Shown here one piece after another: positions 4,243 through 25,166 of a stretch of DNA of 64,000 nt. The notes beneath the pieces are model-generated. The model worked only from the letters and a program-made list of their open reading frames with translations, was not told the origin of the DNA and made no database searches. How positions within the stretch are numbered: the first letter of the stretch is position 1; every line of letters starts with the position of its first letter. The stretch comes from a virus (lineage: Duplodnaviria; Caudoviricetes): the IMG/VR virus record IMGVR_UViG_3300045595_000041, positions 26,206 to 90,205 of that record; one strand, written 5' to 3'. The position numbers were made by a program, and so were the translations under genes.

Positions 4243-5196
4243 ATGACTGTTAAGTCTCGCTCTAAGAAATTCGAAGTTAATGATTCTCGCTTTCCAAATG
4301 AGCGTATCAAGAATAGAAGCAATGTCGTCAATGATTTGACCGCTATCGATGTCAATCTAAGATACATGCCGACATGGGAAGAAGCTAAAGCTTTTCTTCC
4401 AGATGCTATCATGTCGACATGGGCTGCTAAATCAGATGAGTATGACTTCACTGAGCATCAGAAAGATGCTCTTATGTATAGAGCACTACGAAAGAAGTTC
4501 CTACCTCAATATCTAGAATTCGTTAACGTAGTGTTTTCTGTCGATGGAATGACAGCACACGATCTTTCACATACATTGCGAAACAGGAATGCTTCTTTTG
4601 CAGTAGAATGCACAGGCGACAATTACAAGAATCGCAATGATGTTTCTATGCCAGAAGCCTATAAGGAGCTTGGCTTATCGCATGAGTATGAAGCGCTTGC
4701 TACGCTTCAAATGGATCTGTATGCTAAAGCAATCAATTCTGGTATGAGTGTGCAAGATGCAAGACTTATCTTGCCAAGAGGCATCCATCAGTTCGTAATG
4801 ATGAGGATGACACTTGGCAATGCTCTTGGTCTTATTGCTCAGAGAATTGATCTGCAGATCCAGCCGAAAAGTGACAATCTAATGGCACTTCAGCTTGCAG
4901 TTGCTATGTGTAAGAAATGGCCATTGCTTGCAACTCTTATTGATTTTGATGACACTAACTGGTACTATGTCAAAGAGACTACGACCAACTTTGCTTCTAG
5001 ATTCTTCAAGCCACTTCCGCAAAATGACAAGTTCGAGAACGATGACATTGAATTCAAATTCGATGCAGACCCTCTGCATATCCCAGGTCAGAAGACATTC
5101 ATCAAGTTGCTGAATAAGTACAAAGATGAATTGCTAGCAATCAGAAAGCAAGCAGAAGCAGATTATCCATGGGTTTTCGATGAGGACTATCGCTGA
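4243..5196 (+). CDS. thyX: ThyX-fold (FAD-dependent thymidylate synthase-like) protein, divergent
   Basis: LEFVNVVFSVDG, LRNRNASF (variant of RHRxxS), QDARLILP, R...Q motifs; own promoter at 4171. Confidence 0.75.
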   Translation: MTVKSRSKKFEVNDSRFPNERIKNRSNVVNDLTAIDVNLRYMPTWEEAKAFLPDAIMSTWAAKSDEYDFTEHQKDALMYRALRKKFLPQYLEFVNVVFSVDGMTAHDLSHTLRNRNASFAVECTGDNYKNRNDVSMPEAYKELGLSHEYEALATLQMDLYAKAINSGMSVQDARLILPRGIHQFVMMRMTLGNALGLIAQRIDLQIQPKSDNLMALQLAVAMCKKWPLLATLIDFDDTNWYYVKETTTNFASRFFKPLPQNDKFENDDIEFKFDADPLHIPGQKTFIKLLNKYKDELLAIRKQAEADYPWVFDEDYR

Positions 5197-5219
5197 TTTA
5201 GCTGTCTGGAGTCTCTATC

Positions 5220-6710
5220 ATGGCATATGACAAGGTCAAGAAAGCATGTCTTTCGCATAAGTTCTTAGAGCTTTTCTCTGATGATGATGAAGTGCTGTAT
5301 GCTATGAAAGAGACGCCTAAGGCAGTGCTTCTGAAAGGCATTGCAACAGAGTCTTGGGTTCCGAAGTCATGCATATCAGAAGCGAATGCTATCGATTTTG
5401 ATTCTATGTATTCTTCTCAGGAGAAGAGCATAAAATTTCCGATCAAGCATGACACAGAACACAAGTATAAGAACGTGCTTGCTTTGCCTCTGTATCAGCA
5501 TCAGCAAGATGTCGTCAAGACGTTGAAAGACAGTCGTCATTCATATCTTGGCATGGAGATGGGCACAGGAAAGACTGCTTCATCTCTTGCTCATATTGCT
5601 ATACAGAAGCAGAAGTATCCAATACAAATCATATGCGAAAAAGGCCTGATGTCCCAGTGGAAGAGCGAAATACACAAGTTTGCTCCAGACCTAGAAGACA
5701 GAGTAAGAATCATAAACTACGACAAGATATTTCGAGATTCTTGCAAAGCGTATCTTTCAGAATTGAAGAAGAATCGCTACTTTCTTATACTTGAAGAAGT
5801 TTCTTGTCTAGGACATATAGAAGCTAAGAGAACGCAGAAGTCTATAGAGCTAGCTAAGAATGCTTTTGATGTTCAGATGCTTTCAGGCTCTTTCTACGGC
5901 GGCAAACTAGAGCAATTCTATCCAGTCTTCACTATTCAGGGCTTTACTGGCTCTAAAGAGCAATTTGAGAGCATGTTCACAATAAAGATTCCTAGTGTCA
6001 AATCTGTAAGGACTAGATACGGATACACTAAAATCAAAGACGAAAGAATTATCGGATATAAGAACATTGATTTGATGCTCAAAAAGTCTTCTAAATCTGG
6101 AGCTGTGTATCTTAAGACAGAAGACTGCATAGACTTGCCTGAGACAGTCATATCTAGCGTATATGTAGCATTAGACAGGAAAGCAGTGAAGTATGAAGGT
6201 GCATTCTACAAGCTGCAGAACACTATTGACGACAATGAAAAAAGAGGCATGCTCGCTAAGATAAAGCACATGAATTCTTGCGCAGACAACAAGCACAAGC
6301 TTGATGCTATAGAAGCTCTTCTTAGCAAGTCATCAGATCGCTTTGTCATAATGTATTCGCTTGTAGATGAATTAGACGCACTTAAGAGAATTTGCAAGAA
6401 AGCTAATCGAAAAGTATCAGAATGGAATGGTTCTGTAAAAGACAGAACTGCTTTCGACAAGTATGACAATTCTGTGATGCTAGTCCAATGGCAGTCTGGT
6501 GCGAAAGGGCTGAATCTTCAGAAAGCAAACAAGATGATATTCACTTCTCCAATACCATCAGATGCTTACATACAAGCAAAGAAGAGAATACACAGGATCG
6601 GCCAGAAAAGAAAATGCTTCTATTGGCTTATCTGCTCTGATGACAGATTCGAAAGAAACAGGTATGAGCAGCTCTTCAAGTCTGAAGAAAGAGTCAATTC
6701 TATCGGCTGA
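5220..6710 (+). CDS. SNF2/SF2-type helicase
   Basis: LYQHQ Q-motif, MEMGTGKT Walker A, SGAKGLNLQ, QAKKRIHRIGQ motif VI. Confidence 0.85.
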   Translation: MAYDKVKKACLSHKFLELFSDDDEVLYAMKETPKAVLLKGIATESWVPKSCISEANAIDFDSMYSSQEKSIKFPIKHDTEHKYKNVLALPLYQHQQDVVKTLKDSRHSYLGMEMGTGKTASSLAHIAIQKQKYPIQIICEKGLMSQWKSEIHKFAPDLEDRVRIINYDKIFRDSCKAYLSELKKNRYFLILEEVSCLGHIEAKRTQKSIELAKNAFDVQMLSGSFYGGKLEQFYPVFTIQGFTGSKEQFESMFTIKIPSVKSVRTRYGYTKIKDERIIGYKNIDLMLKKSSKSGAVYLKTEDCIDLPETVISSVYVALDRKAVKYEGAFYKLQNTIDDNEKRGMLAKIKHMNSCADNKHKLDAIEALLSKSSDRFVIMYSLVDELDALKRICKKANRKVSEWNGSVKDRTAFDKYDNSVMLVQWQSGAKGLNLQKANKMIFTSPIPSDAYIQAKKRIHRIGQKRKCFYWLICSDDRFERNRYEQLFKSEERVNSIG

Positions 6711-6776
6711 TTTTACATTGCTAAAAATATGGTATATAATATAACTAATTAACCTATTAAGGAAAGGTTCTTAGTT

Positions 6777-7292
6777 ATGGCAGACTCAGGTATATTCGTA
6801 AATAACAAGAATATGTCGTTTGAGGACTTTGGTGAAGACTCAAGAATATTCGATATTGACATGTCTGCATCTAAAGAGAAAGATCGTCTTAAGTCCGATG
6901 GATGGGCTATCTTGAAAGATGGTTTGACTAATTCTTTGCTATACAAAGAAGAGAACGGCATAAGTTGCTTTCAAAGAGTCATATCTGCTGGCGATGTAGA
7001 TGTCAATAGGATGTTCAAAGAAGACATTCCATTCTGTAAGCAATACATGTCAGACAATAGCGTTGGCAAGTCGTATTTTGAATATCTTCCAGTCATTCTA
7101 GTTCTTAAGAACACTAAGACTACTAGACGTGGTGGAATACGAAAAGTCAATATCAAAGAGAATGACGCAAAAGTTGTAGGCTTTGATTCTTCAAGGCTTT
7201 CAGTATATGATGAAGAACCAGACGATGTGTGTCCAGTATGCTTCATGATACGAGCAAATGGCCACTGCTTTTGCGATGGCATAGCATTTTAA
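6777..7292 (+). CDS. Hypothetical protein with C-terminal Zn-finger
   Basis: CPVCF...GHCFC; promoter at 6709 and AAGGAAAGG RBS. Confidence 0.6.
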   Translation: MADSGIFVNNKNMSFEDFGEDSRIFDIDMSASKEKDRLKSDGWAILKDGLTNSLLYKEENGISCFQRVISAGDVDVNRMFKEDIPFCKQYMSDNSVGKSYFEYLPVILVLKNTKTTRRGGIRKVNIKENDAKVVGFDSSRLSVYDEEPDDVCPVCFMIRANGHCFCDGIAF

Positions 7293-7323
7293 TATCAAAA
7301 ACAACAACAAAAAAGGAATCGCA

Positions 7324-8016
7324 ATGAAAAGAAAAGACAAAGTCTGCGACATGTCATTATTCAGCATTCAGTCTATAGACGACTGGGATGTAAATGACAT
7401 CATAGATTATGCTGGGTTTGATAGTGAGACTTATGCAAAGCTTGATGATGCAGTTATTCCTAAGATGTACAGACTTTTCAACGTATGGCCTTTAGCAGAT
7501 GCTCAGAAGCTTGTCAGTGATGTCAAGGAAGAGTATTCTAGGTCGAATCTGAAAGACATCGTAGTAGACAACAGCATCTATATCTCGGAAGAGATTGACA
7601 TGCTAAGCGTAAGCAAAGCATTGAGCATCAGCAACAAAGACAAAGTATTCCGAGTAGATGACTTCAATATTATGAAATCATTCGATAAAGCGTCTGTAAG
7701 AGCTCCAAAGACTAATGAAGAGCTTTCTGAAGCGAAGTATTCAGCTTTTGACAGAATCATGAAAGATTTTGACAATCGAAGGTTTCAGAAGTCTGCTGTA
7801 GAGAATGCTAAAGAATCGTTAGAGTTTGCTATTCATGACTATTTAGAGAATGCAATCTGTCGGTATGATGAATACGGTTTGCTAATGATTAGAGGTCTGC
7901 ATCAAGCAGAATACTTCATTCGCAAAATCGTCGGCAAAAGGAATTTCTCTGAGAACACATGGAAGATGCTTTCTTTCGCTTATGCGATTGATGAGAGGAA
8001 GTATTCTGGTGACTAA
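7324..8016 (+). CDS. Hypothetical protein
   Basis: 230-aa ORF with AAGGA RBS. Confidence 0.6.
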   Translation: MKRKDKVCDMSLFSIQSIDDWDVNDIIDYAGFDSETYAKLDDAVIPKMYRLFNVWPLADAQKLVSDVKEEYSRSNLKDIVVDNSIYISEEIDMLSVSKALSISNKDKVFRVDDFNIMKSFDKASVRAPKTNEELSEAKYSAFDRIMKDFDNRRFQKSAVENAKESLEFAIHDYLENAICRYDEYGLLMIRGLHQAEYFIRKIVGKRNFSENTWKMLSFAYAIDERKYSGD

Positions 8017-8854
8017 AGCTACGCCAAGAGACTACTTCAAGAATATAGATGCAGCCTACATCAATCTAGATGTTGCTGTAGAAAGACGAGAAGCGATAGA
8101 GAATTCTTTTGCTAATGTCTTCAGAAGTCTAACAAGGGTTGTTCCAATAGACTTCAAAGACAAGTTTGCTGTTGGTGTAGATACCAAGTTGCGGCTTATG
8201 GACGCTTTGCAGAACTATGATGAAAAAGGGTATTTCAAGTGTTCTGATCAGTATAGAATAGAAGACATGGACAGTTTCAAGCATAGAAAGAACGATTGCG
8301 AATATGTCAATTCTGTCTGGACACCTGAACAATATGCTGCTCAAGAAAGCTTGTCTCAAACATACAAGCAAATTCTTAAAGACTTTCTAGCTAGCAAGCT
8401 AGAACATATCATGATTTTCGAAGATGATGCACGTGCTAGAGATTTTATGAATGACGAAATAGATATTCCTGATGATGCAGAAATTCTAGCATGGGGTGGA
8501 GCTACATCTTCTACTCAGACAGATGCTAAGCGTTTTGCAAATACAGAATCTTTTCATTTTCGTAGAGTAAGTGGCAAACGTACAGCATGGTATTTTACAG
8601 CTTATGAATTCACAAGAAGTGGCGCTACTAAGCTTCTTGAAGATTTTGAATCAGTTCCTGCATATACTACAGATACGATTGTCAGATATACTTTAGATAG
8701 GTCGATTGCTTATCATCTTATTCCAATGGGCTTTGTGCAAGGTGGTTCATCATATCTTGCAAGAGAAGGTGTTCAGATGCCATTGACTAGAGAAGAAGCA
8801 AAGACTTACAATCTGCAAAACATCATTAAGCCTAAAAGCAATAATTCGAAATAG
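7982..8854 (+). CDS. Glycosyltransferase family 25-like, paralog 1
   Basis: YINLDVAVERR and MIFEDDA motifs typical of GT25. Confidence 0.75.
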   Translation: MRLMRGSILVTKATPRDYFKNIDAAYINLDVAVERREAIENSFANVFRSLTRVVPIDFKDKFAVGVDTKLRLMDALQNYDEKGYFKCSDQYRIEDMDSFKHRKNDCEYVNSVWTPEQYAAQESLSQTYKQILKDFLASKLEHIMIFEDDARARDFMNDEIDIPDDAEILAWGGATSSTQTDAKRFANTESFHFRRVSGKRTAWYFTAYEFTRSGATKLLEDFESVPAYTTDTIVRYTLDRSIAYHLIPMGFVQGGSSYLAREGVQMPLTREEAKTYNLQNIIKPKSNNSK

Positions 8855-8873
8855 AACGAATGGAAATATTGGA

Positions 8874-9731
8874 ATGACTGTCATGAGACCTGCTGACTAC
8901 TTCAAGACAATTGATGCAGTGTACATCAATCTAGATGTTGCCACAGAAAGACGAGCCTCTATAGAACACGATTTTGGCAATGCATTCAGAAGTCTTACAA
9001 GAGTAGAGCCTGTTCATTTCGACGACATGTTTTCAGCCGGTGTAGATGCTAAAATCAGGCTTATGGAATCTGCTAAAAGCTATGATGAAAAAGGATATTT
9101 CAAATGTTCAGAGCAATACAAGGAGATAAGTGCTGATCGTTTCAAGAAGCGAAAAGGTGGCAGCGTCCATGCTAATTCTGTATGGACACCAGAACAGTAT
9201 GCTGCACAAGAAAGCCTGTCTCAAACATCTAGAAAGATATTGCAAGCTTTTCTTAACACGTCTTTAAGTAGTTTGATGATTCTTGAAGATGATGCTCGCG
9301 CTAGAGATTTCATGAATCAAGAACTTGACATTCCAGATGCAGATATATTAGTGTGGGGTGGGGCTGTTACATCTGCGCAGTCAGACGCAGACAGATTCGC
9401 TAAGACAAAATCATTCAGCTTCACCAAGATCAATGGAAAGCATAGCTCTTGGTATACAACAGCATATGAAGTGTCAAGACTTGGTGCAGCTAAGCTTCTT
9501 GAAGAGTATCTTGCTCGTCCTGCTTACACTACAGATACAGTATGGCGATATGCTTTTGATGAAGTAGACACATACAGGCTTTCACCAATGGGCTTTGTTC
9601 AGGGAGCGTCATCATATCTAGCTGATGCAGGCGTAGCAATGCCATTGACTAGAGATGAAGCTGCAGCGTATTGCTTCGAAGACATGACACATCGGACTAG
9701 GATTGTACAAAAGAACAGAATGGTTATATAA
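8874..9731 (+). CDS. Glycosyltransferase family 25-like, paralog 2
   Basis: YINLDVATERR, MILEDDA; colinear and highly similar to the previous ORF (shared NSVWTPEQYAAQESLSQT). Confidence 0.75.
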   Translation: MTVMRPADYFKTIDAVYINLDVATERRASIEHDFGNAFRSLTRVEPVHFDDMFSAGVDAKIRLMESAKSYDEKGYFKCSEQYKEISADRFKKRKGGSVHANSVWTPEQYAAQESLSQTSRKILQAFLNTSLSSLMILEDDARARDFMNQELDIPDADILVWGGAVTSAQSDADRFAKTKSFSFTKINGKHSSWYTTAYEVSRLGAAKLLEEYLARPAYTTDTVWRYAFDEVDTYRLSPMGFVQGASSYLADAGVAMPLTRDEAAAYCFEDMTHRTRIVQKNRMVI

Positions 9732-9794
9732 TTATAAATATAAGGATTAAGAAGATTCCTTAGAATAACTTCTACAAAAAAGAAAGAATCACGA

Positions 9795-10268
9795 ATGATT
9801 CCATACGTTGAATTGATTGGTCCAGACAGGTCTGGAAAGTCAACTATACTAAATTGTTTCAGAAAACGTCTTGGAAAAGACAAATTCTCTTTTGAGTTCA
9901 TTCAAGACAGAGGCATTGCAGATAGCATTGTTCTTGATGCTTATTTCGATAGAACTAATGAAGATGTTCTTGATGAAAGACTAGCTTTTCTTGAATCTGC
10001 AAAGCAGCATTACGAAATCATCTATGTGCATTCTAGTGCACCTATTCTTCAAGATAGAGTAGATGAAGAATTTGACAAAACTGATGCAGAAGACAGTTTC
10101 ATGAATAAAGTCAAAGTTGATTCTAGCAAGCAATTAGAGCTTTATGACTTCTATTATGGTATGTTCAAGTCTTTCATGCCATTCGTTTTCGAATACGATA
10201 CTGAGTCGCATTCTACTGATTTCATTGTAGACGAATTGCTGAAGAATAGAAAAGAAAAGGATTCGTAG
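9795..10268 (+). CDS. dNMP/thymidylate kinase-like P-loop protein
   Basis: ELIGPDRSGKST Walker A and IQDR motif. Confidence 0.75.
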   Translation: MIPYVELIGPDRSGKSTILNCFRKRLGKDKFSFEFIQDRGIADSIVLDAYFDRTNEDVLDERLAFLESAKQHYEIIYVHSSAPILQDRVDEEFDKTDAEDSFMNKVKVDSSKQLELYDFYYGMFKSFMPFVFEYDTESHSTDFIVDELLKNRKEKDS

Positions 10269-13200
10269 ATGTCATACATAGGACTTCATCAACACGCTGA
10301 TTCTTCATGTTTGGATGGTTTTCAAACTCGTCAAGAACTTGTTTCAAGAGCAAAAAGTCTTGGCATGAATGCTGTAGCTATAACAGATCATGGAACTTGC
10401 GCAATTCATGTCAAGTTTGCGCAAGAATGTGCTAAGCAGTCAGATGACAATCTTACTATCAAGCCGATATTCGGTATAGAGTCATATCTTGTAGACGATG
10501 TTCATGATATCATGACAGACAGGATAGCTCATACTAGAGCTGGAAAAGTCAAATACAATAAAGAGACTGGCGAGCCTGAATTAGAGAAGCAAAGAGCTTC
10601 AGACTTCAATCATTGTTGCTTATGGGCTCAGAATGACAAAGGCTTGGAGAATCTTTGGACTGTGTCTACTCTTTCATATACTGAAGGGTTCTACAGAAAG
10701 CCACGTATTGACTTCAATATGCTTAAGAAGTATGGTGAAGGCTTGTTCATATCCGACGGTTGCATGCTTTCTAGAGTATCAAGATGCATAGCTAACGATG
10801 ATATCAAAGGTGCAGTTGCATGGGAAAAGAAGCTTATTGATGCTGTTGGCAAAGAAAATGTGCTTGTAGAGATTCATACATGGCAATTCTGTGACCCAAA
10901 GACTGAAGAGCAGTTCAATCTAAATAGCATAATGACGAAGACTAATAAAGTCAAGATTGAAATTGCTAAAGAGCTTGGTCTTAGAACTATAGCAGTCAAT
11001 GATGCTCATTATGCAAAAAGAGAAGACTATCGCTGGCATGAGCTTGTATGGCAGTCAACTACAGGAAAAGGTAGCGATCTGAATGATGACAAGACTAGTG
11101 GTCGTGGAGAGACAGCCGCTTGGGTCATGTCCGAAGATGAATGCTTCTATTGGCTAAAGAAGCATGGTCTTGATGACGAAGACATTCAGACAGCTATAGA
11201 CAATACTCAATGGGTTGCAGATCATTGCAATGCAAAAATCAAATTCGGCATGGTGCCACCACGATATGGTGACTCTAAGGAAGACGATGACAGACTGCTT
11301 GAGAAGCTTGTCTTAGAGGGTGCTAGAGAAAGAATTCCTTCTGTAGATCAAGCTCAAGAATATATGGCAGAGCTTAAGAAAGAGCTTGAGCTTATAGAGA
11401 AGACAGACTTGTCAGGATACTTCCTTATTGTCTGGGATTATGTCAACTTTGTCTTGTCAGATGACGAAGATGGTTCTAAGTATGGAATAATAGGCAAGAA
11501 AGCTTCACTGCTAGGTTGCGGAAGAGGCTCGAGTGGAGCTTCAGTAGTATGCTACTTCTTAAGGATTACTAATATCGATCCAATAAAGAACAGACTGTAT
11601 TTCGAACGCTTTCTTACTGCAGGTCGTGTTGTATCGTCTGTCAACATCAAGTTTGAAGATGGATGGAAGAAATTCTCACCATCTGAAAAGATAGCTCTAT
11701 CTGATGGCACAAGCAAAGATGCATGGAAGCTTTTGTATGAAGAAGATGATACAGAATATGGGAAAGAGTTAGATTCTAGTTTCGATTTCAAAGACTGTCC
11801 AGATATCGATCTTGATTTTGAAGCTTCAGTCATTCCACAAGTAGATGCATATCTTAAGAAACGCTGGGGCGAATGGAATGTGTGCAGAATCGGTACTGAA
11901 CTGCAAGGCAAGATATCTACTGCTGTTCATGACGTGTTTGCTATCCATGGATACTCTTCTTCAGACATATTCAGTCTAAATCGGAAGATTGCTGCAACAG
12001 GCTGGGATACTGGTGAATATATGGAGCTTCAGACTTATGAAGACTTCATAGAATGCATATCTAAAGATGAAGACCTTAAGAAGATTGTAGATGAGACAGA
12101 GTACTTCAAAGAAGCATGGAATTTCGGTGGAAGAATCAGGACATATGGCGTACACGCTTCAGGATATGTGATATCTAAGAATTCGTTGCTTGGCAAGATT
12201 CCTCTTCGTGTTGCACAAGGTATTCTTGTCACGCAATTTGCTCATGATCAAGTTGCAGACATGGGATTCATAAAGTATGATGTTCTGAAGCTTTCTTCTC
12301 TTGGAACTATACGTGAAGTATATGAGAATGTACACGGCAAGATCGATCCAGATCGCATCTATTCTGAAATGCAGAATGACAAGCTATTTGATGGCGCTAC
12401 TATATGGAAGCAGACATGGGATGGGGATGTCTTGGGCATATTCCAGCTAGATACTCCATTAGGCAAGACGACTGCAACTAATGCTATGATCAATTCAGTG
12501 TCTGACGCTGGCATGATTACTGCTGTTGACAGGCCAGGTCTTGTAAGAAGTGGGCTTATCAAAGACTTCTACAAGGTCAGAAAAGGCGAAGAGGGATGTC
12601 CAAGCTACCATCCATTCACAGATTCTATTCTTGAAGAGACTTCAGGCTTTGTCGTATATCAGGAGCAGATCATGAAGATCTACTCTAGACTATGCAACAT
12701 GAATATGGAAGAAGCAGACAATGTAAGGAAGGTGTTCTCTAAGAAGCAAGTCACTAAAGTGCCTGCAATGAAGAAGTTGCTTTATGACGCATGTCTTAAT
12801 GACAAGAACTTCATAGACAATGTTCCTACGAAGTACTCATCTCCTGAAGAATGCCTTGACGATCTATGGGTTGGAATATCAAGAACAGCAGAATATAGCT
12901 TTAACTCTGCTCATGCAAAAAGTTACGGGATGATAACAGCATATGAGCAGTACATGAAGGTCAGATGGCCATTGCTTTTCGTATGTGCATCTTTGAATAC
13001 AGATCCAGGTCAGACAGATTTTTTGAAGTATGCTATAGTCCATGGATACAAAGTCAAGACTCCGAATGTCAATAAGTCTACTGACAGATATGTAGTCGAT
13101 GATGATACGATATACATGCCCATGTGGTCGATAAAGGGTGTTGGTGGCAAAGCTGTTGAAGAGATTCTCAATAACGGTCCATATTCATCATATGACGATT

Positions 13201-13766
13201 TTCTAGACAAGACTACTGGAAGAGGTGGACGCAAGAAGAATGTGCTTCAAAGTCTAATATCAATAGGTGCTTTCGATGGAGTAGATGAAAGAAGCAGATA
13301 TGACCTGATGTGCGCATTTGCAGAATCTAAAGGGCTAGAAAAACCATACAAGAAGAATTTCGAATCAGACAGAATAATCGCTAAGATCGAGCAAGAGCTG
13401 CTAGGCGTATCACTGTCATATGACGATGTATTGGACAACAAAGACTGGCTTATGTCTGAATCTCCTCAATCGATGGCAGGCCTTATGAAGACTGATGTAG
13501 GTGAGTCTACTAAGATTGCTGGCAAGATAACATCTACTAAGACTAAGAATGCTAAGAATGGCTTGATGGCATGGGTAACGCTTAAGCTAGTGTCTCAAGA
13601 AGAAGTCAAGATAACAGTCTTTGCAAATTCGTATTCTAGATTCAAAGACTATCTTTCTACTGGAGACTTAGTATCGATAATGTGCAAAAGAAGCTCAGAT
13701 TTCAATGGTGCTCCATCATTCATATGCAACTATGTATTCAATGAATCTATGCAGCAAGACAAATAG
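10269..13766 (+). CDS. dnaE: DNA polymerase III alpha subunit
   Basis: PHP domain (LHQH...SCLDG, AITDHG, NDAHY), GRGS, FERFL, PDIDLDF, HASG, KYDVLKL, VYQEQIM, YSFNSAHA, C-terminal OB fold. Confidence 0.97.
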   Translation: MSYIGLHQHADSSCLDGFQTRQELVSRAKSLGMNAVAITDHGTCAIHVKFAQECAKQSDDNLTIKPIFGIESYLVDDVHDIMTDRIAHTRAGKVKYNKETGEPELEKQRASDFNHCCLWAQNDKGLENLWTVSTLSYTEGFYRKPRIDFNMLKKYGEGLFISDGCMLSRVSRCIANDDIKGAVAWEKKLIDAVGKENVLVEIHTWQFCDPKTEEQFNLNSIMTKTNKVKIEIAKELGLRTIAVNDAHYAKREDYRWHELVWQSTTGKGSDLNDDKTSGRGETAAWVMSEDECFYWLKKHGLDDEDIQTAIDNTQWVADHCNAKIKFGMVPPRYGDSKEDDDRLLEKLVLEGARERIPSVDQAQEYMAELKKELELIEKTDLSGYFLIVWDYVNFVLSDDEDGSKYGIIGKKASLLGCGRGSSGASVVCYFLRITNIDPIKNRLYFERFLTAGRVVSSVNIKFEDGWKKFSPSEKIALSDGTSKDAWKLLYEEDDTEYGKELDSSFDFKDCPDIDLDFEASVIPQVDAYLKKRWGEWNVCRIGTELQGKISTAVHDVFAIHGYSSSDIFSLNRKIAATGWDTGEYMELQTYEDFIECISKDEDLKKIVDETEYFKEAWNFGGRIRTYGVHASGYVISKNSLLGKIPLRVAQGILVTQFAHDQVADMGFIKYDVLKLSSLGTIREVYENVHGKIDPDRIYSEMQNDKLFDGATIWKQTWDGDVLGIFQLDTPLGKTTATNAMINSVSDAGMITAVDRPGLVRSGLIKDFYKVRKGEEGCPSYHPFTDSILEETSGFVVYQEQIMKIYSRLCNMNMEEADNVRKVFSKKQVTKVPAMKKLLYDACLNDKNFIDNVPTKYSSPEECLDDLWVGISRTAEYSFNSAHAKSYGMITAYEQYMKVRWPLLFVCASLNTDPGQTDFLKYAIVHGYKVKTPNVNKSTDRYVVDDDTIYMPMWSIKGVGGKAVEEILNNGPYSSYDDFLDKTTGRGGRKKNVLQSLISIGAFDGVDERSRYDLMCAFAESKGLEKPYKKNFESDRIIAKIEQELLGVSLSYDDVLDNKDWLMSESPQSMAGLMKTDVGESTKIAGKITSTKTKNAKNGLMAWVTLKLVSQEEVKITVFANSYSRFKDYLSTGDLVSIMCKRSSDFNGAPSFICNYVFNESMQQDK

Positions 13767-13770
13767 ATTA

Positions 13771-14104: not shown

Positions 14105-14970
14105 TTGACATGCCATATAGAAAGCGAAAGCAAGTATTCGTTCTAGATTCTAATCTGCTTATGATGAAGTCGGCAGCAGTCTTCAGAAATCTTAGCCTTG
14201 AGTCAGGTGAAGAGTCTGGAATAGTCTATGGCTATGTCAGCAAGGTCATGAACATGATATGGCAAGATATGCCAGACTATTTTGTGCCATTGTTTGACAA
14301 TGGACGATCGAAGTACAGGACTAACATCAGAGCAGAATACAAAGGCAACAGAGGCAAGAAGTCAGATTCTAAGATAAAGCAGTTCGAAGCTTGCAAGGAG
14401 TTCACTAGCCTGCTTGGATTCAATCCATATTGCATTGCGAATACAGAAGCAGATGACCTTGCTGCAGCAATAGTAAGCAAGTATGCTAGCAAGTACTACA
14501 TCAAACTGTGGTCTGCAGACCATGACTGGCGACAATTGCTTAGAGACAATGTAGTGCTCGTCAAGGAGCTAAAAGGCAATAGCGAGCTCATAACAGAAAA
14601 GAAGGCGACAGAAGAGCTAGGTCTTGACATTCATAGATGGCCAGAGATTGCTGCGATAGTCGGAGATCCTGGTGATGGAGTATATGGTCTGAAGGGCTTT
14701 GGCTATGGAAAAGCTAAGAAGATGCTGTACAAGTATGGCGATCTTTGGAATGCTGTAGCTAACGATGACAAGCTTAAGCCATATTCGAAGACTATTCTTG
14801 AGAACTACCAGCTTACGATCTTAGACGGCTCTATTGCAGAAGAGCAGGTCAATATAGAAGCTCATGACATACGTAACATAAAAGACATAGACAGAGAAGC
14901 GTTGTATGCTTTCTTTGATAGGTGGCAACTGAACAAGGCTAAGAAAGACTTCGAGAATGAATTCGTCTGA
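14101..14970 (+). CDS. 5'-3' exonuclease (PolI N-terminal/FEN-like)
   Basis: LDS, FD, YKGNR, EADD, SADHD, H3TH motif VGDPGDGVYGLKGFG. Confidence 0.92.
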   Translation: MIDMPYRKRKQVFVLDSNLLMMKSAAVFRNLSLESGEESGIVYGYVSKVMNMIWQDMPDYFVPLFDNGRSKYRTNIRAEYKGNRGKKSDSKIKQFEACKEFTSLLGFNPYCIANTEADDLAAAIVSKYASKYYIKLWSADHDWRQLLRDNVVLVKELKGNSELITEKKATEELGLDIHRWPEIAAIVGDPGDGVYGLKGFGYGKAKKMLYKYGDLWNAVANDDKLKPYSKTILENYQLTILDGSIAEEQVNIEAHDIRNIKDIDREALYAFFDRWQLNKAKKDFENEFV

Positions 14971-17290: not shown

Positions 17291-17314
17291 TTTGCAATTC
17301 AAATATTGCATTTT

Positions 17315-17379
17315 GGGTAATATGGTACTGTATGTAGAGTGTTCTGTATATTGTTGATGTTCGATTCATCAGTTACCTA
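17315..17379 (+). ncRNA. tRNA-like RNA lacking a D-arm
   Basis: Acceptor-like stem GGGTAAT/GTTACCT plus canonical T-arm TGATG-TTCGATT-CATCA; single central hairpin. Confidence 0.4.
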
Positions 17380-17490
17380 CGCAGTTTCAGTAGGCTATGA
17401 GTTAGCAGCATGACGAAAGTCATCATGGTTATATGTGACCACTAACGAGCTGAATGCTATAGCATACAGTCTGGTGCAATGCCAGACATT

Positions 17491-17564
17491 GCCTTTGTAA
17501 TTCAACTGGATAGAATGCCCGTCTTCTAAACGGGATGTTGCGAGTCCGAGTCTCGCCAAAGGCA
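17491..17564 (+). tRNA. tRNA-Arg(UCU)
   Basis: Acceptor GCCTTTG/CAAAGGC, D-arm ATTC/GAAT, anticodon arm CCCGT-CT TCT AA-ACGGG, T-arm GCGAG-TCCGAGT-CTCGC; no encoded CCA. Confidence 0.92.
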
Positions 17565-17590
17565 CGATGATTGCGGTCTATCATCAAAAC

Positions 17591-17667
17591 AGCCCGCTAT
17601 CCCCTCATACTTATAATATGCTGAAAGGGTAATTGGTGACATAAGAGTTCAAGTCTCTTGCGGGCTA
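17591..17667 (+). tRNA. Non-canonical tRNA-like RNA with UAU (Ile) anticodon loop
   Basis: Acceptor AGCCCGC/GCGGGCT, T-arm AAGAG-TTCAAGT-CTCTT, CATA-CT TAT AA-TATG hairpin; no D-arm in the normal position. Confidence 0.6.
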
Positions 17668-17774
17668 CTTCTATTATAAAAAATGAAAGGAAAGATAGAC
17701 AAGACAATAGCACGAGATAACGCAACTAATAGCATAATATACGCAATAATTAGCACAAATAGAAAGAATACAAT

Positions 17775-18596: not shown

Positions 18597-18794
18597 AAGT
18601 TCTGTAGAATCTAGATCATTCTCAGATTTCGGTTCATTCACGAACATATAAGATGAGTTCATGCCAGTCTCTGCATCATAAGAATATTATGGATATAGTA
18701 TTATATATTCAATTGATTAGCTATGGTCAGAGATTGGCATTCTCATTATTTTTCAACTGATTCAGATTCACGTTGTAAGGCAAAAGAATACAAT

Positions 18795-20078: not shown

Positions 20079-20137
20079 TCCGATTTTACTTTTTATTGCC
20101 TATAGTATATAATATAATTATAGACTTGGAGACAACA

Positions 20138-20680
20138 ATGGCTAATTCTCATGAAAGCTTCCCAGACTGGCATCAGCACGAAAAAGACATATCTGACATG
20201 ATTCAAGCTGATCAGACCACAGCTTCTGGTTCCGTATGGTATGACAAGACAGACGTGACGACAAGAGAGCATCCGTTAGATAGAGAAGTGCAATTCCAAG
20301 CTGATGGAAAGTCAACTCACTTCAGCAAGTATTCTATCGATGTGCATTTCATGGAAGAGAACAGACTTCGTGCAGTTAAGACTGGCAAGATCTTCCTTCT
20401 TCCTGTTCGTTTCGAACTTACGCCAGACAGACATGAGAAATACGACTATGTCGTTCTGTCAATGGACGATTTCAGATTCGTCACTGGTCTAGACGAAGTG
20501 AAAAGCATGCGAGAGAAAGATGCTAATCGCAAGAACAAAGAAGCTGCATTCAAGAACAAGATATCAGCCGTCATCGAGTCACTTTACAATATGGCTGCAG
20601 ACAATAAGCTGTCTTGTAATGAGCTAAACATCATATACAAAGCTTGCGATGCTCTCGATGAAGGCATGAATGAACTGTGA
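20138..20680 (+). CDS. PD-(D/E)xK nuclease, Holliday junction resolvase-like
   Basis: ASGSVW..KTD...ADGKST pattern; next to recA; promoter at 20082. Confidence 0.55.
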   Translation: MANSHESFPDWHQHEKDISDMIQADQTTASGSVWYDKTDVTTREHPLDREVQFQADGKSTHFSKYSIDVHFMEENRLRAVKTGKIFLLPVRFELTPDRHEKYDYVVLSMDDFRFVTGLDEVKSMREKDANRKNKEAAFKNKISAVIESLYNMAADNKLSCNELNIIYKACDALDEGMNEL

Positions 20681-21237
20681 CAGATTCATTAGAGCTTGTA
20701 TCTGCTGTTGCTCAGTCTAGCAAAGAGAGGCTTGCGAAGTCTAGCATATGTAGAATATGCTCTCTAGAAGTATCTGAAAGGCGAGTCTTAGAGCAGCTTA
20801 TAGCTTGTGGAGTGCCCAATACTGTAATCATACATATTGCGAGTCAGATGTTCAATATCGAGATCAATGGCTCTATTATAGCTAAGCACATTGATCATCT
20901 TCCTGCTAAACTGTTCATGTACAAGGAGATAATAGAGAGACGAGCTAAAGAAGCTGGCATATCTCCAGATGATACTGCTAGCAGACTTACTCCAGTCGCT
21001 TACATAGAGATGCTTCTCAATGACGCAGCTCAGACACTTATCGACAATCCTAAAAGCACTAATGCATTCGTTGGAATGCAAGCTGCCAAGACTTTGATAG
21101 ACATCGAAGGCAACAAAGCTTCTCAAGAAGATGTCATGCTTTGGGTTTCTAAGTTCAGGCAATTGGTCGGTGCTATGAAGACTGTATGCTCTCAAGATCA
21201 GATAGACAAGATACTGAAAGTTGTAGAAGATGAGTGA
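20677..21237 (+). CDS. Hypothetical protein (CxxC)
   Basis: ICRIC near N-terminus; coupled to neighbouring genes. Confidence 0.55.
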   Translation: MTDSLELVSAVAQSSKERLAKSSICRICSLEVSERRVLEQLIACGVPNTVIIHIASQMFNIEINGSIIAKHIDHLPAKLFMYKEIIERRAKEAGISPDDTASRLTPVAYIEMLLNDAAQTLIDNPKSTNAFVGMQAAKTLIDIEGNKASQEDVMLWVSKFRQLVGAMKTVCSQDQIDKILKVVEDE

Positions 21238-21535
21238 GTCTGATATATCAAAAGAAGAAGCTGAGCAGAAGTTCGATGATTTCAGAAAGACAAAAGCTTT
21301 GCTTCCATGTCAGTATCTGCCATCTGCTTATTTCTACAGACGATACTGGATATGGTCTTCGCCTACTGATGTTGATGACATAAGAGTCGTAAAGAATGTT
21401 TGCGATACTTGTCCTCTTAAAGAAGAATGCAGGGAAGTCGGCAAGGATGAGCCATATGGCATTTGGGGTAATGAATATAGAGAGCATTGGGCTGAAAGAC
21501 GAGACCTAGACGTCGACAGGGAACCATATGCTTGA
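21230..21535 (+). CDS. whiB: WhiB-family transcriptional regulator
   Basis: C...KNVCDTCPLKEEC...EPYGIWG: four Cys plus G(I/V)WG. Confidence 0.85.
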   Translation: MSESDISKEEAEQKFDDFRKTKALLPCQYLPSAYFYRRYWIWSSPTDVDDIRVVKNVCDTCPLKEECREVGKDEPYGIWGNEYREHWAERRDLDVDREPYA

Positions 21536-21616
21536 TTTTTTGTCATATGATTGTACATTGTCAATCATTTGATATATAATAATAATACTATAAAATACAA
21601 AAAGAAAGGATTCATT

Positions 21617-22048
21617 TTGAACAAAAGCAACAAAGACTTTCTAAGCAAGAAAGCTTCACAATTTGATTGGGAAGACATCCTCAATTCACAGATGGCATTG
21701 CAATCTGCTTATCATGTAGATTTGAATGCTAAAGGCAAAGATAGATGCCGTCTGATAAAAGACATGGCTTTCTCATGCGAATCAGAGCTTCATGAAATGT
21801 TGCAATGTGTTTCATGGAGAGACTGGTCTGATAGTGATGACATAGATGAAGATGGCGTAAAAGAAGAGCTACGTGACTCATTCCAATTCTTCGTCAATCT
21901 TATGCTAATAATGAAAATGTCACCTGAAGAGCTATTTGAAAGAGTCAAGTCCAAGCAGAATAAGAATTGGGACAGAATCTCTTCTAATTACAGCGAGCAT
22001 ATCAATTCTAAGGATTCTGATGGATCAGACTATAGTAATGCAATCTGA
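21617..22048 (+). CDS. All-alpha (dimeric) dUTPase/dCTPase, T4 gp56-like fold
   Basis: ESELHEML..SWRDW...EELRDSFQF...KQNKNWDR pattern; TTG start after AAAGGA. Confidence 0.75.
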   Translation: MNKSNKDFLSKKASQFDWEDILNSQMALQSAYHVDLNAKGKDRCRLIKDMAFSCESELHEMLQCVSWRDWSDSDDIDEDGVKEELRDSFQFFVNLMLIMKMSPEELFERVKSKQNKNWDRISSNYSEHINSKDSDGSDYSNAI

Positions 22049-22811
22049 ACCTTCTATGTCTGATGAAGAAATGCGATATGACTTTCTTTCAGACAGAGAT
22101 GTTCTTTATGTCTATTCTGTATATCCTGAATCTAAGAAGAAGTCATGGTGCCCAACTTGCAATGGTAGTGATGCTAATTGCGATCACGAATTGCAAAGGC
22201 AATTGTTCAAGCATTATGCGAATGCAGGCATAGGTCTTACATATCAACGGCTTTCATGGAAAGACTACAATGGACCAGAAGATGTGAAGAAGTTCTGTCA
22301 GATATATGCAAGTCAATCTAAAGCTTTCAAAGAGAACAATGTCGGACTAATGCTTCTTGGCAATAATGGAACAGGCAAGACTACTGTAATGTCATTGCTA
22401 TTGAAAGACTTGGTAAGACAAAGAGCTAAGTGCTTCTTCACAACGTATTCGAATCTAGTTCAAATGCTTGGTGGCTCGTTTTACGATGAAGATGCAAGAC
22501 GGCTTTATGCTGACAAGATTATCAAGTCTACTTTCTTGGCTATAGACGACATAGGCAAAGAGATGGCTAACAAGTTGACTGTAAATGCTATCGATAATGT
22601 TCTTAGACAAAGAGTGCAAGCTTCTAGACCTACTTTCCTTACGTCGAACATGACAAGAGGTCAGATAATGAATGAGTATGGAAGATCTGCTTTCAGTCTG
22701 ATAGCTGAGACCTCTAATGCATTCGATTTTGACGGATACGATGTCAGACCAGATGTAAGAAAGCGAAAGCTTGAAGATGCAGCTAAGGGTATCATTCATC
22801 CCATCATTTGA
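22038..22811 (+). CDS. DnaC/IstB-like AAA+ helicase loader
   Basis: CPTC Zn motif, GNNGTGKT, LAIDDIGKE, LRQR...PTFLTSN; start codon uncertain. Confidence 0.88.
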   Translation: MQSEPSMSDEEMRYDFLSDRDVLYVYSVYPESKKKSWCPTCNGSDANCDHELQRQLFKHYANAGIGLTYQRLSWKDYNGPEDVKKFCQIYASQSKAFKENNVGLMLLGNNGTGKTTVMSLLLKDLVRQRAKCFFTTYSNLVQMLGGSFYDEDARRLYADKIIKSTFLAIDDIGKEMANKLTVNAIDNVLRQRVQASRPTFLTSNMTRGQIMNEYGRSAFSLIAETSNAFDFDGYDVRPDVRKRKLEDAAKGIIHPII

Positions 22812-22830
22812 AAGAATGTAACAACAGCTT

Positions 22831-24123
22831 ATGGAAGAAGCAACTAAATTAGAAGACATGGCTGTCTACTTGATGACAGATCTGACTTCATTGAAGAGAA
22901 TGTACTCTCTTGGTCTTAGAGAGACTTACTTCGATGATCTATTGAACAAGAAAGCATTTGCGTTCTCTGTAGAATACTGGCAAGGTTCTAATCTTAAGAA
23001 AGCACCTACAAGCAGTCTGCTTGAGAAGGAAGTCCCAAGCCTACATGTGAAGTCGACAGACATATCTGCTACATATATAGTTGATGCTCTTAAGAAACGG
23101 CTTATATCGAACAGGATGAAAAGAGCTTTGCTGGATTCGGCAGACTCTTTGAAAGAGCATCCTAAAGAAGCCCTAGAAATTCTGTCTAATCAGCTATGGT
23201 CTATTTCGAAGCAAGCTAAAGACAGAAAGAATGTCTCGGAACTGTATGATACTGTAGAAAGTCGAAAAGAACGATATCATAAGCGTTCTAAGATGTCGAA
23301 GAATGGTCTTATTGGCGCATCTATAGGTTTCCCAGAGATCGATCAAGTCACAATGGGTCTTGCAAATGGAGAGCTATGCACAATAGCTGCTCCTACTAAG
23401 ACTGGCAAGACATGGATTGGCCTAAAGATTGTTGCAGAAGCTATGAAAGCTAAGAAGAGAGTAGTCTTCTTCACGCTTGAGCTTTCTGTAGCAGATATCG
23501 AAGATAGACTTGACGCTATTCTGTCTGGCGTATCATATTCAAGGCTTTCTACAGGCACATTGTCATCTATAGAGATTGGAAAGCTGTCAAAGATTCAGCA
23601 GTCATATGATTCATATGGAAAAGTACTGATTTCTAAGCCACGAATAGGTGAAAGAACAGTTCCAGACATGATGAAAGTAATACGAGATTTTGATGCGGAG
23701 TTAGTAGTCATAGACCAGCTTTCATTCATGGAAGCATCGAATCCTGGAACATCAAAGACAGAGAATGCATCTAGAATAATCGATGAGCTTAAGATGTCGA
23801 TATCTGAAGACGAAGACAGCATGATTCCAGTCTACTTGCTTTCTCAGATGAATAGAGCTGCTTCATTCACAGAGAATGGAAGAGGAAAGCTGACTAATAT
23901 CGCTCTTACTTCGAACATAGAGAATGCTTCAGATCTGATAATAGGCCTTGGCTCTACTAAAGAGCAGAGAATCAACAACACTATGGTTCTTGAGATTCTT
24001 GGGTCAAGACGAACTAGCATGAGGTCTTGGCTGATATATCGAAATCTTCAAGACAAGACAGACTTCCACGTCATAAAAGAGATGACAGAGGATGAAGACG
24101 CAAGCGAAGAGGTAGAATCATAA
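22831..24123 (+). CDS. dnaB: Replicative DNA helicase
   Basis: GFPEID..TMGL..GEL..IAAPTKTGKT, FTLE, VVIDQL, LSQMNR, IENASD. Confidence 0.93.
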   Translation: MEEATKLEDMAVYLMTDLTSLKRMYSLGLRETYFDDLLNKKAFAFSVEYWQGSNLKKAPTSSLLEKEVPSLHVKSTDISATYIVDALKKRLISNRMKRALLDSADSLKEHPKEALEILSNQLWSISKQAKDRKNVSELYDTVESRKERYHKRSKMSKNGLIGASIGFPEIDQVTMGLANGELCTIAAPTKTGKTWIGLKIVAEAMKAKKRVVFFTLELSVADIEDRLDAILSGVSYSRLSTGTLSSIEIGKLSKIQQSYDSYGKVLISKPRIGERTVPDMMKVIRDFDAELVVIDQLSFMEASNPGTSKTENASRIIDELKMSISEDEDSMIPVYLLSQMNRAASFTENGRGKLTNIALTSNIENASDLIIGLGSTKEQRINNTMVLEILGSRRTSMRSWLIYRNLQDKTDFHVIKEMTEDEDASEEVES

Positions 24124-25166
24124 TGCACTACATTCCAGGTAGAAGCTTGAGAATAGCTTTCGTCACGCATAAAAGCAATCTTCATGGAAGCCTGACTTGG
24201 TTCAATTCTATGAAGGAGATAGAGTTTTTGAAGCAAGTATTCAAGGGCTCTGTTGTTGATGGCGTAAGCATGAAGCCTGATGCTAAAGATTTCAATACTA
24301 CGTTCAAGCAGGCATCTAAAAGACGTTACGACCTGATCGTCATGAATCTTCAGAAGAAGTATGATTCTGAAAGAAAGCACGCTGGCTTCAAAATGATGAA
24401 TGATTTCATCAAGCAATCTGAAGCGCCTGTGCTAGCGCTTGTAGATGATGTAGTGATAGCAGAATCGCCATCTACGAATATGTCTTCTTTCGACAACAAG
24501 ATGGCAGTGATAGGAATGAAGATAGACAGCAAGAAGCTGAAAGATGCTGGATATCATAATGTCGTCATCTCTAACAGAATCAAAGACATGTCTGTCATGC
24601 TGAAGTCAAATAGACGTTTCATTACTTCGGCTAAGTCTGTAGACTTCGCTTACATTGGAATGCTTCGCAACAAGAGACTTAGACTAGTAGTAGATGCTTT
24701 CAATGCTCTTTCGAGAGCAGGATATTCATGCAAATTCTATGGAGCTGATGCTATCTATGACATGGATTCAGAAGAATCTTCTAATATTCTGCATTCTGCT
24801 GAGTTTGAAGTGCTAGACAAAGTAGATGCTGATAAAGTAGTAGACGTCATGTCTGAAGCTATATACTCCATTCTTCCAAGATACGATTATGGAAAAGACA
24901 TATTCTCAAACAGGATATACGAAGATGATTCTGCTAACTGCTTGATGCTAGCAGATGAGCAATATGGCCTCCATGACATTTTCGATAAGGAAGTAAGATA
25001 TCAGAATGACAAGGATCTGATAGCTTTAGTCAAGCTGTTCGATGATCATCCAGAACTGCAGTCGTACATGCTTGACCAGCAGCATGTAAGCGTAGAGAGA
25101 GAATATCATGCTTCCAGAGCAGAGCTAGAGCAAGCTTTGATAGATTCTGTAAAAGAGCTTCTGTGA
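24123..25166 (+). CDS. GT-B glycosyltransferase resembling T4 DNA beta-glucosyltransferase
   Basis: By-eye colinear motifs with T4 Bgt: LRIAFV/MKIAII, VDGVSMK/VDIISLK, DFAYIGMLR/DVIYGGSFR, FYG/FFG, SNRIYE..ANCLMLADE/TLRVWE..SDAVMLIDE, MLDQQH/MLSIQH. Confidence 0.7.
   Translation: MHYIPGRSLRIAFVTHKSNLHGSLTWFNSMKEIEFLKQVFKGSVVDGVSMKPDAKDFNTTFKQASKRRYDLIVMNLQKKYDSERKHAGFKMMNDFIKQSEAPVLALVDDVVIAESPSTNMSSFDNKMAVIGMKIDSKKLKDAGYHNVVISNRIKDMSVMLKSNRRFITSAKSVDFAYIGMLRNKRLRLVVDAFNALSRAGYSCKFYGADAIYDMDSEESSNILHSAEFEVLDKVDADKVVDVMSEAIYSILPRYDYGKDIFSNRIYEDDSANCLMLADEQYGLHDIFDKEVRYQNDKDLIALVKLFDDHPELQSYMLDQQHVSVEREYHASRAELEQALIDSVKELL

Follow-up and report, generated by a model that had tools for sequence, protein, structure and literature searches.

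We analysed a 64,000-nucleotide stretch of viral DNA (the window), which spans bases 26,206-90,205 of the 90,205-base IMG/VR contig IMGVR_UViG_3300045595_000041 (completeness rating 81%). Its replication genes include one for a ThyX-like protein, P0001, and one for a glycosyltransferase, P0002, distantly related to the T4 beta-glucosyltransferase (Bgt). The altered ThyX, nucleotide-clearing enzymes and the distant Bgt relative probably make and decorate an unusual DNA base. We consider the chances evenly balanced that the replication module carries a pre-replicative pyrimidine-modification pathway that is built on a neofunctionalised ThyX paralog and whose product is glycosylated in this lineage. 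P0001 would then be an enzyme for a non-canonical pyrimidine deoxynucleoside monophosphate (dNMP), because its active-site residues are swapped, canonical ThyX proteins are co-resident with members of its family and its gene is linked in operons to those of nucleotide enzymes.

The window is proposed to be part of a myovirus-like phage. All of its sizeable genes are on the + strand, and all the open reading frames (ORFs) named in an earlier sequence-only reading of this DNA are present there. A near-identical complete relative, G001 (108,378 bases with direct terminal repeats), encodes a ThyX-like protein that is 97% identical to P0001. About 13 kb of G001 are absent from the contig and encode tail, sheath and baseplate proteins; the nucleotide-metabolism inventory of the contig is therefore essentially complete. 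The sequence-only reading had seen neither a ThyA-fold hydroxymethylase nor a TET/JBP enzyme, and this was borne out for the whole 90,205-base contig and the complete G001, where we observed no match to the ThyA fold (PF00303), no match to TET/JBP (PF12851) at E≤0.1 and no second ThyX. A 9.5-kb part of the window had no megablast match among phage records.

Active site of the ThyX-like protein

P0001 (317 residues; 4243..5196, +) was classified as a non-canonical ThyX paralog by Pfam Thy1, NCBIfam thyX and profile alignment. It scored 39.8 bits against Pfam Thy1 (PF02511; E 5.5e-10, gathering cut-off 24.8), which places it in the fold family only. Against the NCBIfam thyX equivalog TIGR02170 the score was 26.2 bits, below the cut-off of 87.9, compared to 178.1 for a co-resident canonical phage ThyX. 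The altered motif pointed out by the sequence-only reading was found, with RNRNASFAVECT at residues 113-124. P0001 reads RNRNASFAVECTGD, that is R-N-R-NA-S-FAVE-C-T-G-D, in place of the ThyX motif RHRxxSxxxxSxRY that contains Ser88, Arg90 and Tyr91 (T. maritima numbering). In the profile alignment to the ThyX chain 3gwc, Cys123 falls on the second motif Ser, Gly125 on the Arg and Asp126 on the Tyr. The His of RHR is Asn in P0001 and variable in the family. A search of the family profile against solved chains matched 23 ThyX chains (best E 6.9e-22). The alignments support the view that P0001 is not a canonical ThyX and that the catalytic Ser/Arg/Tyr have become Cys/Gly/Asp.

In ThyX, Ser88 and Tyr91 are described as 'strictly conserved' and critical, and Arg90 adjoins Tyr91 (PMC11940539). 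The Tyr acts as a lid that shields the uracil C5 and the flavin N5 from solvent (PMC6514825). The alignment argues that the residues swapped in P0001 are exactly those that close the active site and assist methylene transfer. Among ThyA-fold enzymes, hydroxymethylase or hydroxylase activity goes along with Asp or Glu at a site where a bulky residue otherwise excludes water (PMC13326640, section 24), and the apparent change of the Tyr lid to Asp in the ThyX-like protein parallels this acidic-residue rule.

The substitutions extend over the family. We aligned 67 of its 110 clusters, the near-full-length rows (267-353 residues) being picked by eye and the other 43 (fragments or much longer proteins) left out. 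At the ThyX Ser position these 67 members have Cys (44), Ser (10), Thr (7), Gly (4) or Ala (2), and at the Arg position Gly (46), Ala (10), Asp (5), Arg (4), Val (1) or a gap (1). At the Tyr position Asp is present in 49 members and Tyr in none. R113, R174 and R201 (P0001 numbering), on the other hand, are kept in 66-67 of the 67, and R174 and R201 fall on arginines conserved in ThyX. In the alignment, the counterparts of R78, R80, R147 and R174 of T. maritima ThyX are likewise retained. The ThyX-like protein thus shares with ThyX (PF02511; PDB 3gwc, 1kq4) the fold family and the arginines of the RxR motif, of 'AR..LP' and of the last motif.

All six canonical ThyX genes that we took from records also carrying a ThyX-like gene keep RHRxxSxxxxSxRY, and they encode ~210-245 residues compared to ~320 for the paralog. 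Canonical ThyX proteins in general have ~215-270 residues, and the difference lies in extensions of the paralog of ~30 residues at the N-terminus and ~85 at the C-terminus, which have no counterpart in them. A quick maximum-likelihood tree, not relied on here, split the canonical from the ThyX-like rows at an SH-aLRT of 87.

Family distribution and the nucleotide-metabolism cassette

An exhaustive HMMER search yielded 110 representative clusters of the ThyX-like family at E≤1e-3, of which 55 also passed E≤1e-10. Relatives are encoded in 240 IMG/VR viral contigs, and among 50,697 cultured-phage records Geobacillus phage GR1 was the sole member. We compared 81 loci, namely the best 80 of the 240 viral contigs plus GR1, whose ThyX-like proteins group into 14 lineages at 60% identity. 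Whole-record searches covered 43 longer records, 13 of them complete genomes, with co-residence counted over 10 lineages.

The most constant partner of the ThyX-like gene is a homolog of nucleoside 2-deoxyribosyltransferase (NDT), found within 10 kb of it in 74 of the 81 loci and 12 of the 14 lineages. It mostly adjoins the ThyX-like gene (gaps mostly 3-1,400 bp), in the order NDT-HD-ThyX-like or ThyX-like-NDT. A cluster of all-alpha dUTPase-like proteins is represented in 61 loci (8 lineages) and an HD-domain gene in 38 loci (10 lineages). DnaE is encoded within 10 kb in 30-32 loci (7 lineages), and small genes for kinases resembling thymidylate kinase (Tmk) adjoin the ThyX-like gene in 7 loci from 3 lineages, recurring just ahead of it. 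Other recurring neighbours are a dUTPase_2-NT5C fusion, dCMP deaminase and trimeric dUTPase. The same set is found at the GR1 locus, where the ThyX-like gene is accompanied by genes for NDT, HD, DnaE and dUTPase as well as for a transferase, a small P-loop protein and a nitroreductase-like flavoprotein.

In the window, the all-alpha nucleoside triphosphate (NTP) pyrophosphatase of the dUTPase_2/T4 gp56-like type is encoded at 21551..22048 (+), with a possible alternative TTG start at 21617 preceded by AGGA. It matched Pfam dUTPase_2 at 30.8 bits (E 4.2e-7, cut-off 22.9) and T4 gp56 in a local BLASTP alignment of 49 residues (E 4e-6), in agreement with the gp56-like dCTPase/dUTPase that the sequence-only reading had placed at 21617. 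The dNMP kinase that it had seen in operon with dnaE stood as to the junction, the TAG stop of 9795..10268 (+) directly preceding the dnaE ATG at 10269, but the product is only a small P-loop protein with a faint likeness to thymidylate kinases (PHROG E 1.4e-3; PDB E 0.23, over the P-loop region only) and with no Pfam or NCBIfam match. From these matches and its gene position it is a candidate modified-dNMP kinase, and its P-loop resembles that of the small P-loop protein of GR1. The dnaE gene itself (10269..13766, +) encodes a DnaE-type (Pol III alpha) replicative polymerase with the Pfam domains DNA_pol3_alpha, PHP, finger and HHH_6.

Three further genes form a cluster at 29403-31009, just beyond the range of the sequence-only reading. 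The first encodes a dCTP deaminase (29403..29942, +; NCBIfam dCTP_deam equivalog 146.4 bits, cut-off 92.8; Pfam DCD E 5.8e-37). The second encodes an NDT/DNPH1-like protein (29979..30470, +), which matched Pfam Nuc_deoxyrib_tr (PF05014) at 60.6 bits (E 2e-16, cut-off 28.8) and PDB 6evs at E 4.7e-6. Its DSGTIWECG aligns with DTGTAWELG of 6evs, so that the D-x-G-T-x-W-E-x-G motif is present, the Glu of which we take to be catalytic. The third encodes an HD-domain phosphohydrolase (30464..31009, +; Pfam YfbR-like E 2.4e-14), either a YfbR-like 5'-deoxynucleotidase or a dNTP triphosphohydrolase, with PDB matches to 1xx7 (E 5e-4), YfbR (0.08) and DatZ (0.083). Directly downstream of the ThyX-like gene is a gene for an SNF2-type helicase (5220..6710, +; Pfam ResIII, SNF2-rel_dom and Helicase_C); an SNF2 gene also adjoins NDT-HD in loci L051 and L046.

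A second, canonical ThyX (E 1e-40 to 1e-55) was observed in 18 of the 43 longer records, usually 1-4 kb from the ThyX-like gene, and for this reason the ThyX-like protein is probably not an ordinary thymidylate synthase. ThyA was above the cut-off in 3 of the records with a ThyX-like gene, one of which has both ThyA and a canonical ThyX. Altogether, another thymidylate synthase co-resides in 20 of the 43 records and in 5 of the 10 lineages.

Several observations weigh against the proposed modification pathway. Cys at the ThyX Ser position is not universal, Ser, Thr, Gly or Ala being present in 23 of the 67 members, and the idea of a universal Cys nucleophile is weakened to that extent (44 of 67). 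The active-site geometry is read from a sequence alignment, and counting the motif over the 81 loci is partly circular, C[TS][GA]D having been included in one of the two search patterns. A literature search for Geobacillus phage GR1 turned up no paper. The neighbours (dCTP or dCMP deaminase, dUTPase, Tmk-like kinase) are also exactly what ordinary dTTP synthesis needs, and the ThyX-like gene is the only thymidylate-synthase homolog in 10 of the 13 complete genomes, only 3 having another.

The last two points favour ordinary dTTP supply, in which the ThyX-like protein would be a divergent but functional dUMP-to-dTMP synthase that, with salvage enzymes, shifts the host pool toward AT-rich phage DNA, and the glycosyltransferases would act elsewhere. 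Each neighbour fits dTTP synthesis or salvage, the Pfam Thy1 cut-off is passed, the arginines aligned with conserved ThyX arginines are kept and the GC content of the window is ~0.40. We nevertheless regard dTTP supply as unlikely, since the equivalents of Ser88, Arg90 and Tyr91 are all replaced, with Tyr in none of the 67 members, the score is far under the thyX equivalog cut-off, and a canonical ThyX or ThyA is encoded in nearly half of the longer records, often 1-4 kb off.

Some additional features of the loci were observed. The NDT-like ORF is ~260-316 residues long, compared to the usual ~150, in L006, L014, L016, L020, L044, L050, L074 and others. In GR1 (L082), a nitroreductase/dihydropteridine-reductase-like gene (14208-14807) is directly upstream of the ThyX-like gene and a flavodoxin gene (1518-1946) is nearby; their products are candidate flavin-reducing partners. 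A DUF6378 protein is encoded in the window (37825-38271), and a DUF6378 gene directly precedes the ThyX-like gene within the cassette at L046 9598-9942 and L067 5034-5369. In 37 loci from 2 large lineages, an NAD-dependent epimerase/dehydratase gene adjoins the ThyX-like gene (L008 10889-11884; L071 11805-12791), possibly reflecting sugar-nucleotide chemistry linked to modification. A gene for an Fpg/Nei-type DNA glycosylase (L061 2875-3675) follows the ThyX-like/NDT pair at a distance of a few hundred bases in 21 loci of 1 large lineage; enzymes of this type excise oxidised pyrimidines.

The Bgt-like transferase

The P0002 gene (347 residues; 24123..25166, +) lies between those for DnaB (22831-24123, +) and DnaG (25163-26083, +), both assigned by Pfam. 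Its start codon shares bases with the stop of dnaB (TAATG), and its own stop runs into the start of dnaG; it is translationally coupled between the two, which agrees with the wedged position described in the sequence-only reading. We assigned P0002 from Pfam, hhalign and this gene position. It matched Pfam PF13524 (Glyco_trans_1_2) at 27.6 bits. Direct BLASTP against T4 Bgt gave E 7e-4 over 116 C-terminal residues, and profile comparison by hhalign gave a probability of 79% (E 1.5e-5) over 293 columns, residues 42-343 of P0002 against 34-349 of T4 Bgt, with a shallow profile of 4 sequences. As a control, the P0002-family profile was compared with the GR1 transferase, and gave a probability of 9% over 61 columns.

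In the hhalign alignment, D109, R182, R185, R264 and E267 of P0002 fall on the identical residues D100, R191, R195, R269 and E272 of T4 Bgt, and all five are invariant among the 4 P0002-family sequences. We take Asp100 of T4 Bgt to be the catalytic base, and Arg191, Arg195, Arg269 and Glu272 to be ligands of the UDP-sugar (UDP-glucose). In a language-model search the nearest neighbour of P0002 was a viral cluster with PF09198 in 100% of its members (score 0.97). On these comparisons, P0002 is best placed in the GT-B clan as a distant GT63-like protein, and it is a natural candidate for glycosylating a new hydroxyl in this phage. The end-to-end alignment with T4 Bgt that the sequence-only reading had made by eye was thus recovered by hhalign, with the five functional positions, but the relationship is weak and is invisible to tblastn, phmmer and PF09198.

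The following results weaken the Bgt resemblance or count against glycosylation as a part of the pathway. PF09198 had no match to P0002 (hmmscan, E≤10) or in a six-frame search of the contig and G001 (E≤1), and the hhalign profile of P0002 is shallow (Neff 1.5). P0002 comes close to being an orphan: 5.8 billion clusters contained 3 relatives, and a profile search returned the same 3. No match was obtained by tblastn against the 50,697 phage records including T4 (E≤1e-5) or by phmmer against PDB (E≤10), and a search for loci related to the P0002-family alignment found none. A PF13524-type transferase was present in 8 of the 43 family records, 3 of them above the cut-off, ruling out a Bgt-like transferase as the general partner of the ThyX-like family. 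Because the relatives of P0002 and the records with PF13524 are so few, glycosylation is lineage-specific at best.

Consistent with these results, the cassette could make a modified pyrimidine such as 5-methyldeoxycytidine, 5-hydroxymethyldeoxyuridine or 5-hydroxymethyldeoxycytidine that is left unglycosylated, P0002 and the other transferases acting on host or virion glycans or on an unrelated DNA acceptor. The other 35 of the 43 family records are without a PF13524-type transferase, the cassette core is without any transferase in the loci mapped, and the near-orphan status of P0002 fits as well. However, the Bgt-like gene is enclosed by dnaB and dnaG and overlaps both at the stop and start codons, its product aligns end to end with T4 Bgt and has identical residues at all five positions assigned above to the catalytic base and the UDP-sugar ligands, and the GR1 cassette holds a transferase of a different type between its HD and P-loop genes. 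We therefore judge an unglycosylated product to be improbable.

A degenerate DNA pattern for IYEDDSAN matched only G001 and contig L101. The latter was rejected as the carrier of a P0002 relative, the match being a chance one inside a tail-region ORF (BLASTP E 0.15). At 6-1757 this unrelated viral contig encodes a terminase large subunit with an intein bearing a LAGLIDADG endonuclease.

Other transferase genes are present in the window. A GT25-like glycosyltransferase candidate (7982..8854, +) matched Pfam Glyco_transf_25 weakly (E 2.7e-4; 21.3 bits, below the cut-off of 24), and the ORF that follows (8874-9731, +) is a weaker GT25-like one (E 0.012). A GT2-family glycosyltransferase (27211..28212, +; Pfam Glycos_transf_2, 27.6 bits) is encoded in a region of low GC content that separates dnaG from the dCTP deaminase gene. 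This stretch (26000-30000; GC 0.35-0.36) also contains an orphan ORF (26276-27214) and unannotated ORFs (28194-28673 and 28716-29399). Located just upstream of the dCTP deaminase-NDT-HD cluster, it may be an acquired sugar-modification island.

Proposed pathway and related systems

We infer all the steps of the pathway as follows. The dCTP deaminase and the gp56-like all-alpha pyrophosphatase would provide the monophosphate substrate from dCTP and dUTP; dUMP is the most likely one, with dCMP as the alternative. The ThyX-like enzyme would still bind flavin and nucleotide, because the arginines aligned with R78, R80, R147 and R174 of the T. maritima enzyme are kept, with its Tyr lid changed to Asp, the neighbouring Arg to Gly and the Ser to Cys. 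With C5 open to solvent or O2, the methylene would not be reduced to a methyl, and a 5-hydroxymethyl or 5-hydroxy pyrimidine dNMP would be released. A hydroxyl and a hydroxymethyl product are equally plausible, because homologs of ThyA carry out flavin- and O2-dependent C5 hydroxylation (PMC13326640). The small Tmk-like kinase would phosphorylate the product, which the phage DnaE would then incorporate, the competing canonical nucleotide being removed by the HD phosphohydrolase and the NDT/DNPH1-like enzyme. Finally, in this lineage, the new hydroxyl on DNA would be glycosylated by the Bgt-like transferase, which is co-translated with DnaB and DnaG, perhaps together with the enzymes of the GT2 and GT25-like types.

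We favour dUMP as the substrate because of the retained arginines and because the dCTP deaminase gene adjoins the NDT and HD genes. The deaminase, together with R174 and R201 as aligned, would be no less compatible with a uracil substrate than with a T4-like cytosine scheme; the co-residence of canonical ThyX and the new Asp leave dCMP open. It is very improbable that the ThyX-like protein does not modify dNMPs at all and is instead a flavin-dependent pyrimidine methylase of nucleic acid (tRNA/rRNA or DNA) or an inert nucleotide-binding or regulatory subunit, for although a protein that has lost the catalytic triad could be inactive and the terminal extensions could bind another partner, the new motif and the nucleotide- and flavin-contacting arginines are under strong purifying conservation over 110 clusters and the gene is linked in operons to enzymes acting on dNMPs and dNTPs, in places including a small kinase.

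The proposed pathway resembles that of T4, in which gp42 dCMP hydroxymethylase (ThyA fold), gp1 dNMP kinase, gp56 dCTPase and the alpha- and beta-glucosyltransferases together make DNA with glucosylated hydroxymethylcytosine. The logic is the same, with a pyrophosphatase, a C5-modifying thymidylate-synthase paralog, a dedicated kinase and post-replicative glycosylation, and the gp56-like and Bgt-like proteins of the window are weakly similar to the T4 proteins by direct comparison. The differences are that the proposed base-modifier is of the ThyX fold, which is unrelated to ThyA, and that ThyA-fold genes are absent, that the candidate kinase is faintly Tmk-like, that NDT-like, HD and dCTP deaminase proteins belong to the set, and that the polymerase is DnaE.

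A second system of comparable logic is the Z-genome cluster of the cyanophage S-2L type, with PurZ, the all-alpha pyrophosphatase MazZ and the HD triphosphohydrolase DatZ. In that cluster, and as proposed for the window, a pyrophosphatase supplies a monophosphate, an HD enzyme removes the competing dNTP and a repurposed biosynthetic enzyme makes the nucleotide, and the HD protein of the window faintly matches DatZ as given above. The Z system, however, makes a purine through a PurA homolog, and the sequence relationship is superfamily-level at most.

To our knowledge, a ThyA-fold enzyme is the starting point of all the pre-replicative pathways of pyrimidine hypermodification that have been characterised, including those described in PMC8989533 and PMC13326640. 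The 5-hydroxy-dCMP synthases of RB69 and DLP3 are flavin-binding ThyA homologs that occur with DNA arabinosyltransferases (Lee et al., NAR 2026, PMC13326640). These enzymes show that flavin-dependent C5 hydroxylation is a real alternative to hydroxymethylation. The likeness to the proposed pathway is that a thymidylate-synthase homolog is repurposed, with flavin and O2, for placing a C5 hydroxyl on a pyrimidine dNMP, after which sugars are built on the DNA with the help of a dedicated dNMP kinase and several transferases (PMC13326640). The RB69 and DLP3 enzymes differ in being of the ThyA fold, and the term ThyX is absent from the main text of that paper.

In Bacillus phage SP-15, more than 50% of the thymine is replaced by glucosylated DHPU, and the phage has two Thy1 proteins, the canonical gp9 and the divergent gp130, the latter hypothesised to be a hydroxymethyl-dUMP synthase (Kropinski et al. 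2018, PMC5977210). The cluster at 5730-8911 of SP-15 (L100) includes the NDT gp127 (316 residues), the short-chain reductase gp129 and gp130; the NDT gene lies two genes upstream of gp130. gp127 is homologous to the NDT-like protein of the window (E 5e-8) and shares its length with the long NDT-like ORFs of the family loci. The NDT-Thy1 pairing thus recurs in a phage with chemically proven hypermodified thymine, and this constant partner points to an unstudied nucleotide-clearing step. SP-15 gp130 itself was ruled out as a member of the ThyX-like family: hhalign gave 1.9%, neither an RHR nor a CxGD motif is present, and the family profile found nothing in SP-15 at E≤1.

A full-text literature search, with subscription journals and supplementary files outside it, turned up no characterised ThyX-fold DNA-modification enzyme and only the SP-15 hypothesis. 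The claim of a new hypermodification pathway in the sequence-only reading thus gains a non-canonical ThyX in a conserved nucleotide-pool cassette, but the idea of a ThyX-fold hydroxymethylase is not wholly new, having already been put forward for gp130 (PMC5977210). As a whole, what that reading observed was partly confirmed, and its interpretation is partly supported.

With somewhat less confidence than for the pathway in this phage, we tentatively suggest that the Cys-x-Gly-Asp ThyX paralogs are uncharacterised flavin-dependent C5-hydroxymethylases or hydroxylases of pyrimidine dNMPs, which would make ThyX the second fold, independent of ThyA, that viruses have recruited for non-canonical DNA bases. 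They would nucleate a widespread five-gene cassette (all-alpha pyrophosphatase, NDT/DNPH1-like protein, HD or NT5C phosphohydrolase, mini-Tmk and the ThyX paralog) in hundreds of uncultured viruses and in GR1, the product being glycosylated in the window's phage by a replisome-travelling GT63-like enzyme. If this is true, the ThyX fold would provide a second, convergent entry point into modified DNA. Hundreds of viral genes labelled 'FAD-dependent thymidylate synthase', including that of GR1, may then mark hypermodified genomes, and annotation practice would change. Hypermodified genomes resist restriction enzymes and possibly CRISPR, and can bias sequencing. The Ser-to-Cys and Tyr-to-Asp swaps would also offer a handle on how ThyX partitions between reduction (to a methyl) and hydration or oxygenation. 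Since a member of the family, GR1, is in culture on Geobacillus stearothermophilus, the question can be tested directly.

The remaining replication genes of the window, all assigned by Pfam and on the + strand, encode an NAD-dependent ligase (1703-3538) and, within the range covered by the sequence-only reading, a 5'-3' exonuclease, an RNase T-like exonuclease, a RecA-like protein and a DnaC/IstB-like loader. A single tRNA-Arg gene (anticodon TCT; 17491-17565) occupies an intergenic gap of the replication module. A WhiB-like transcription factor (21230-21535, +) hints at an actinobacterial host despite a GC content of only ~40%. At 49302-50564 of the window, inside the phage genome, a TnpB/Cas12f-like protein with OrfB_IS605 and Cas12f1-like TNB domains is encoded.

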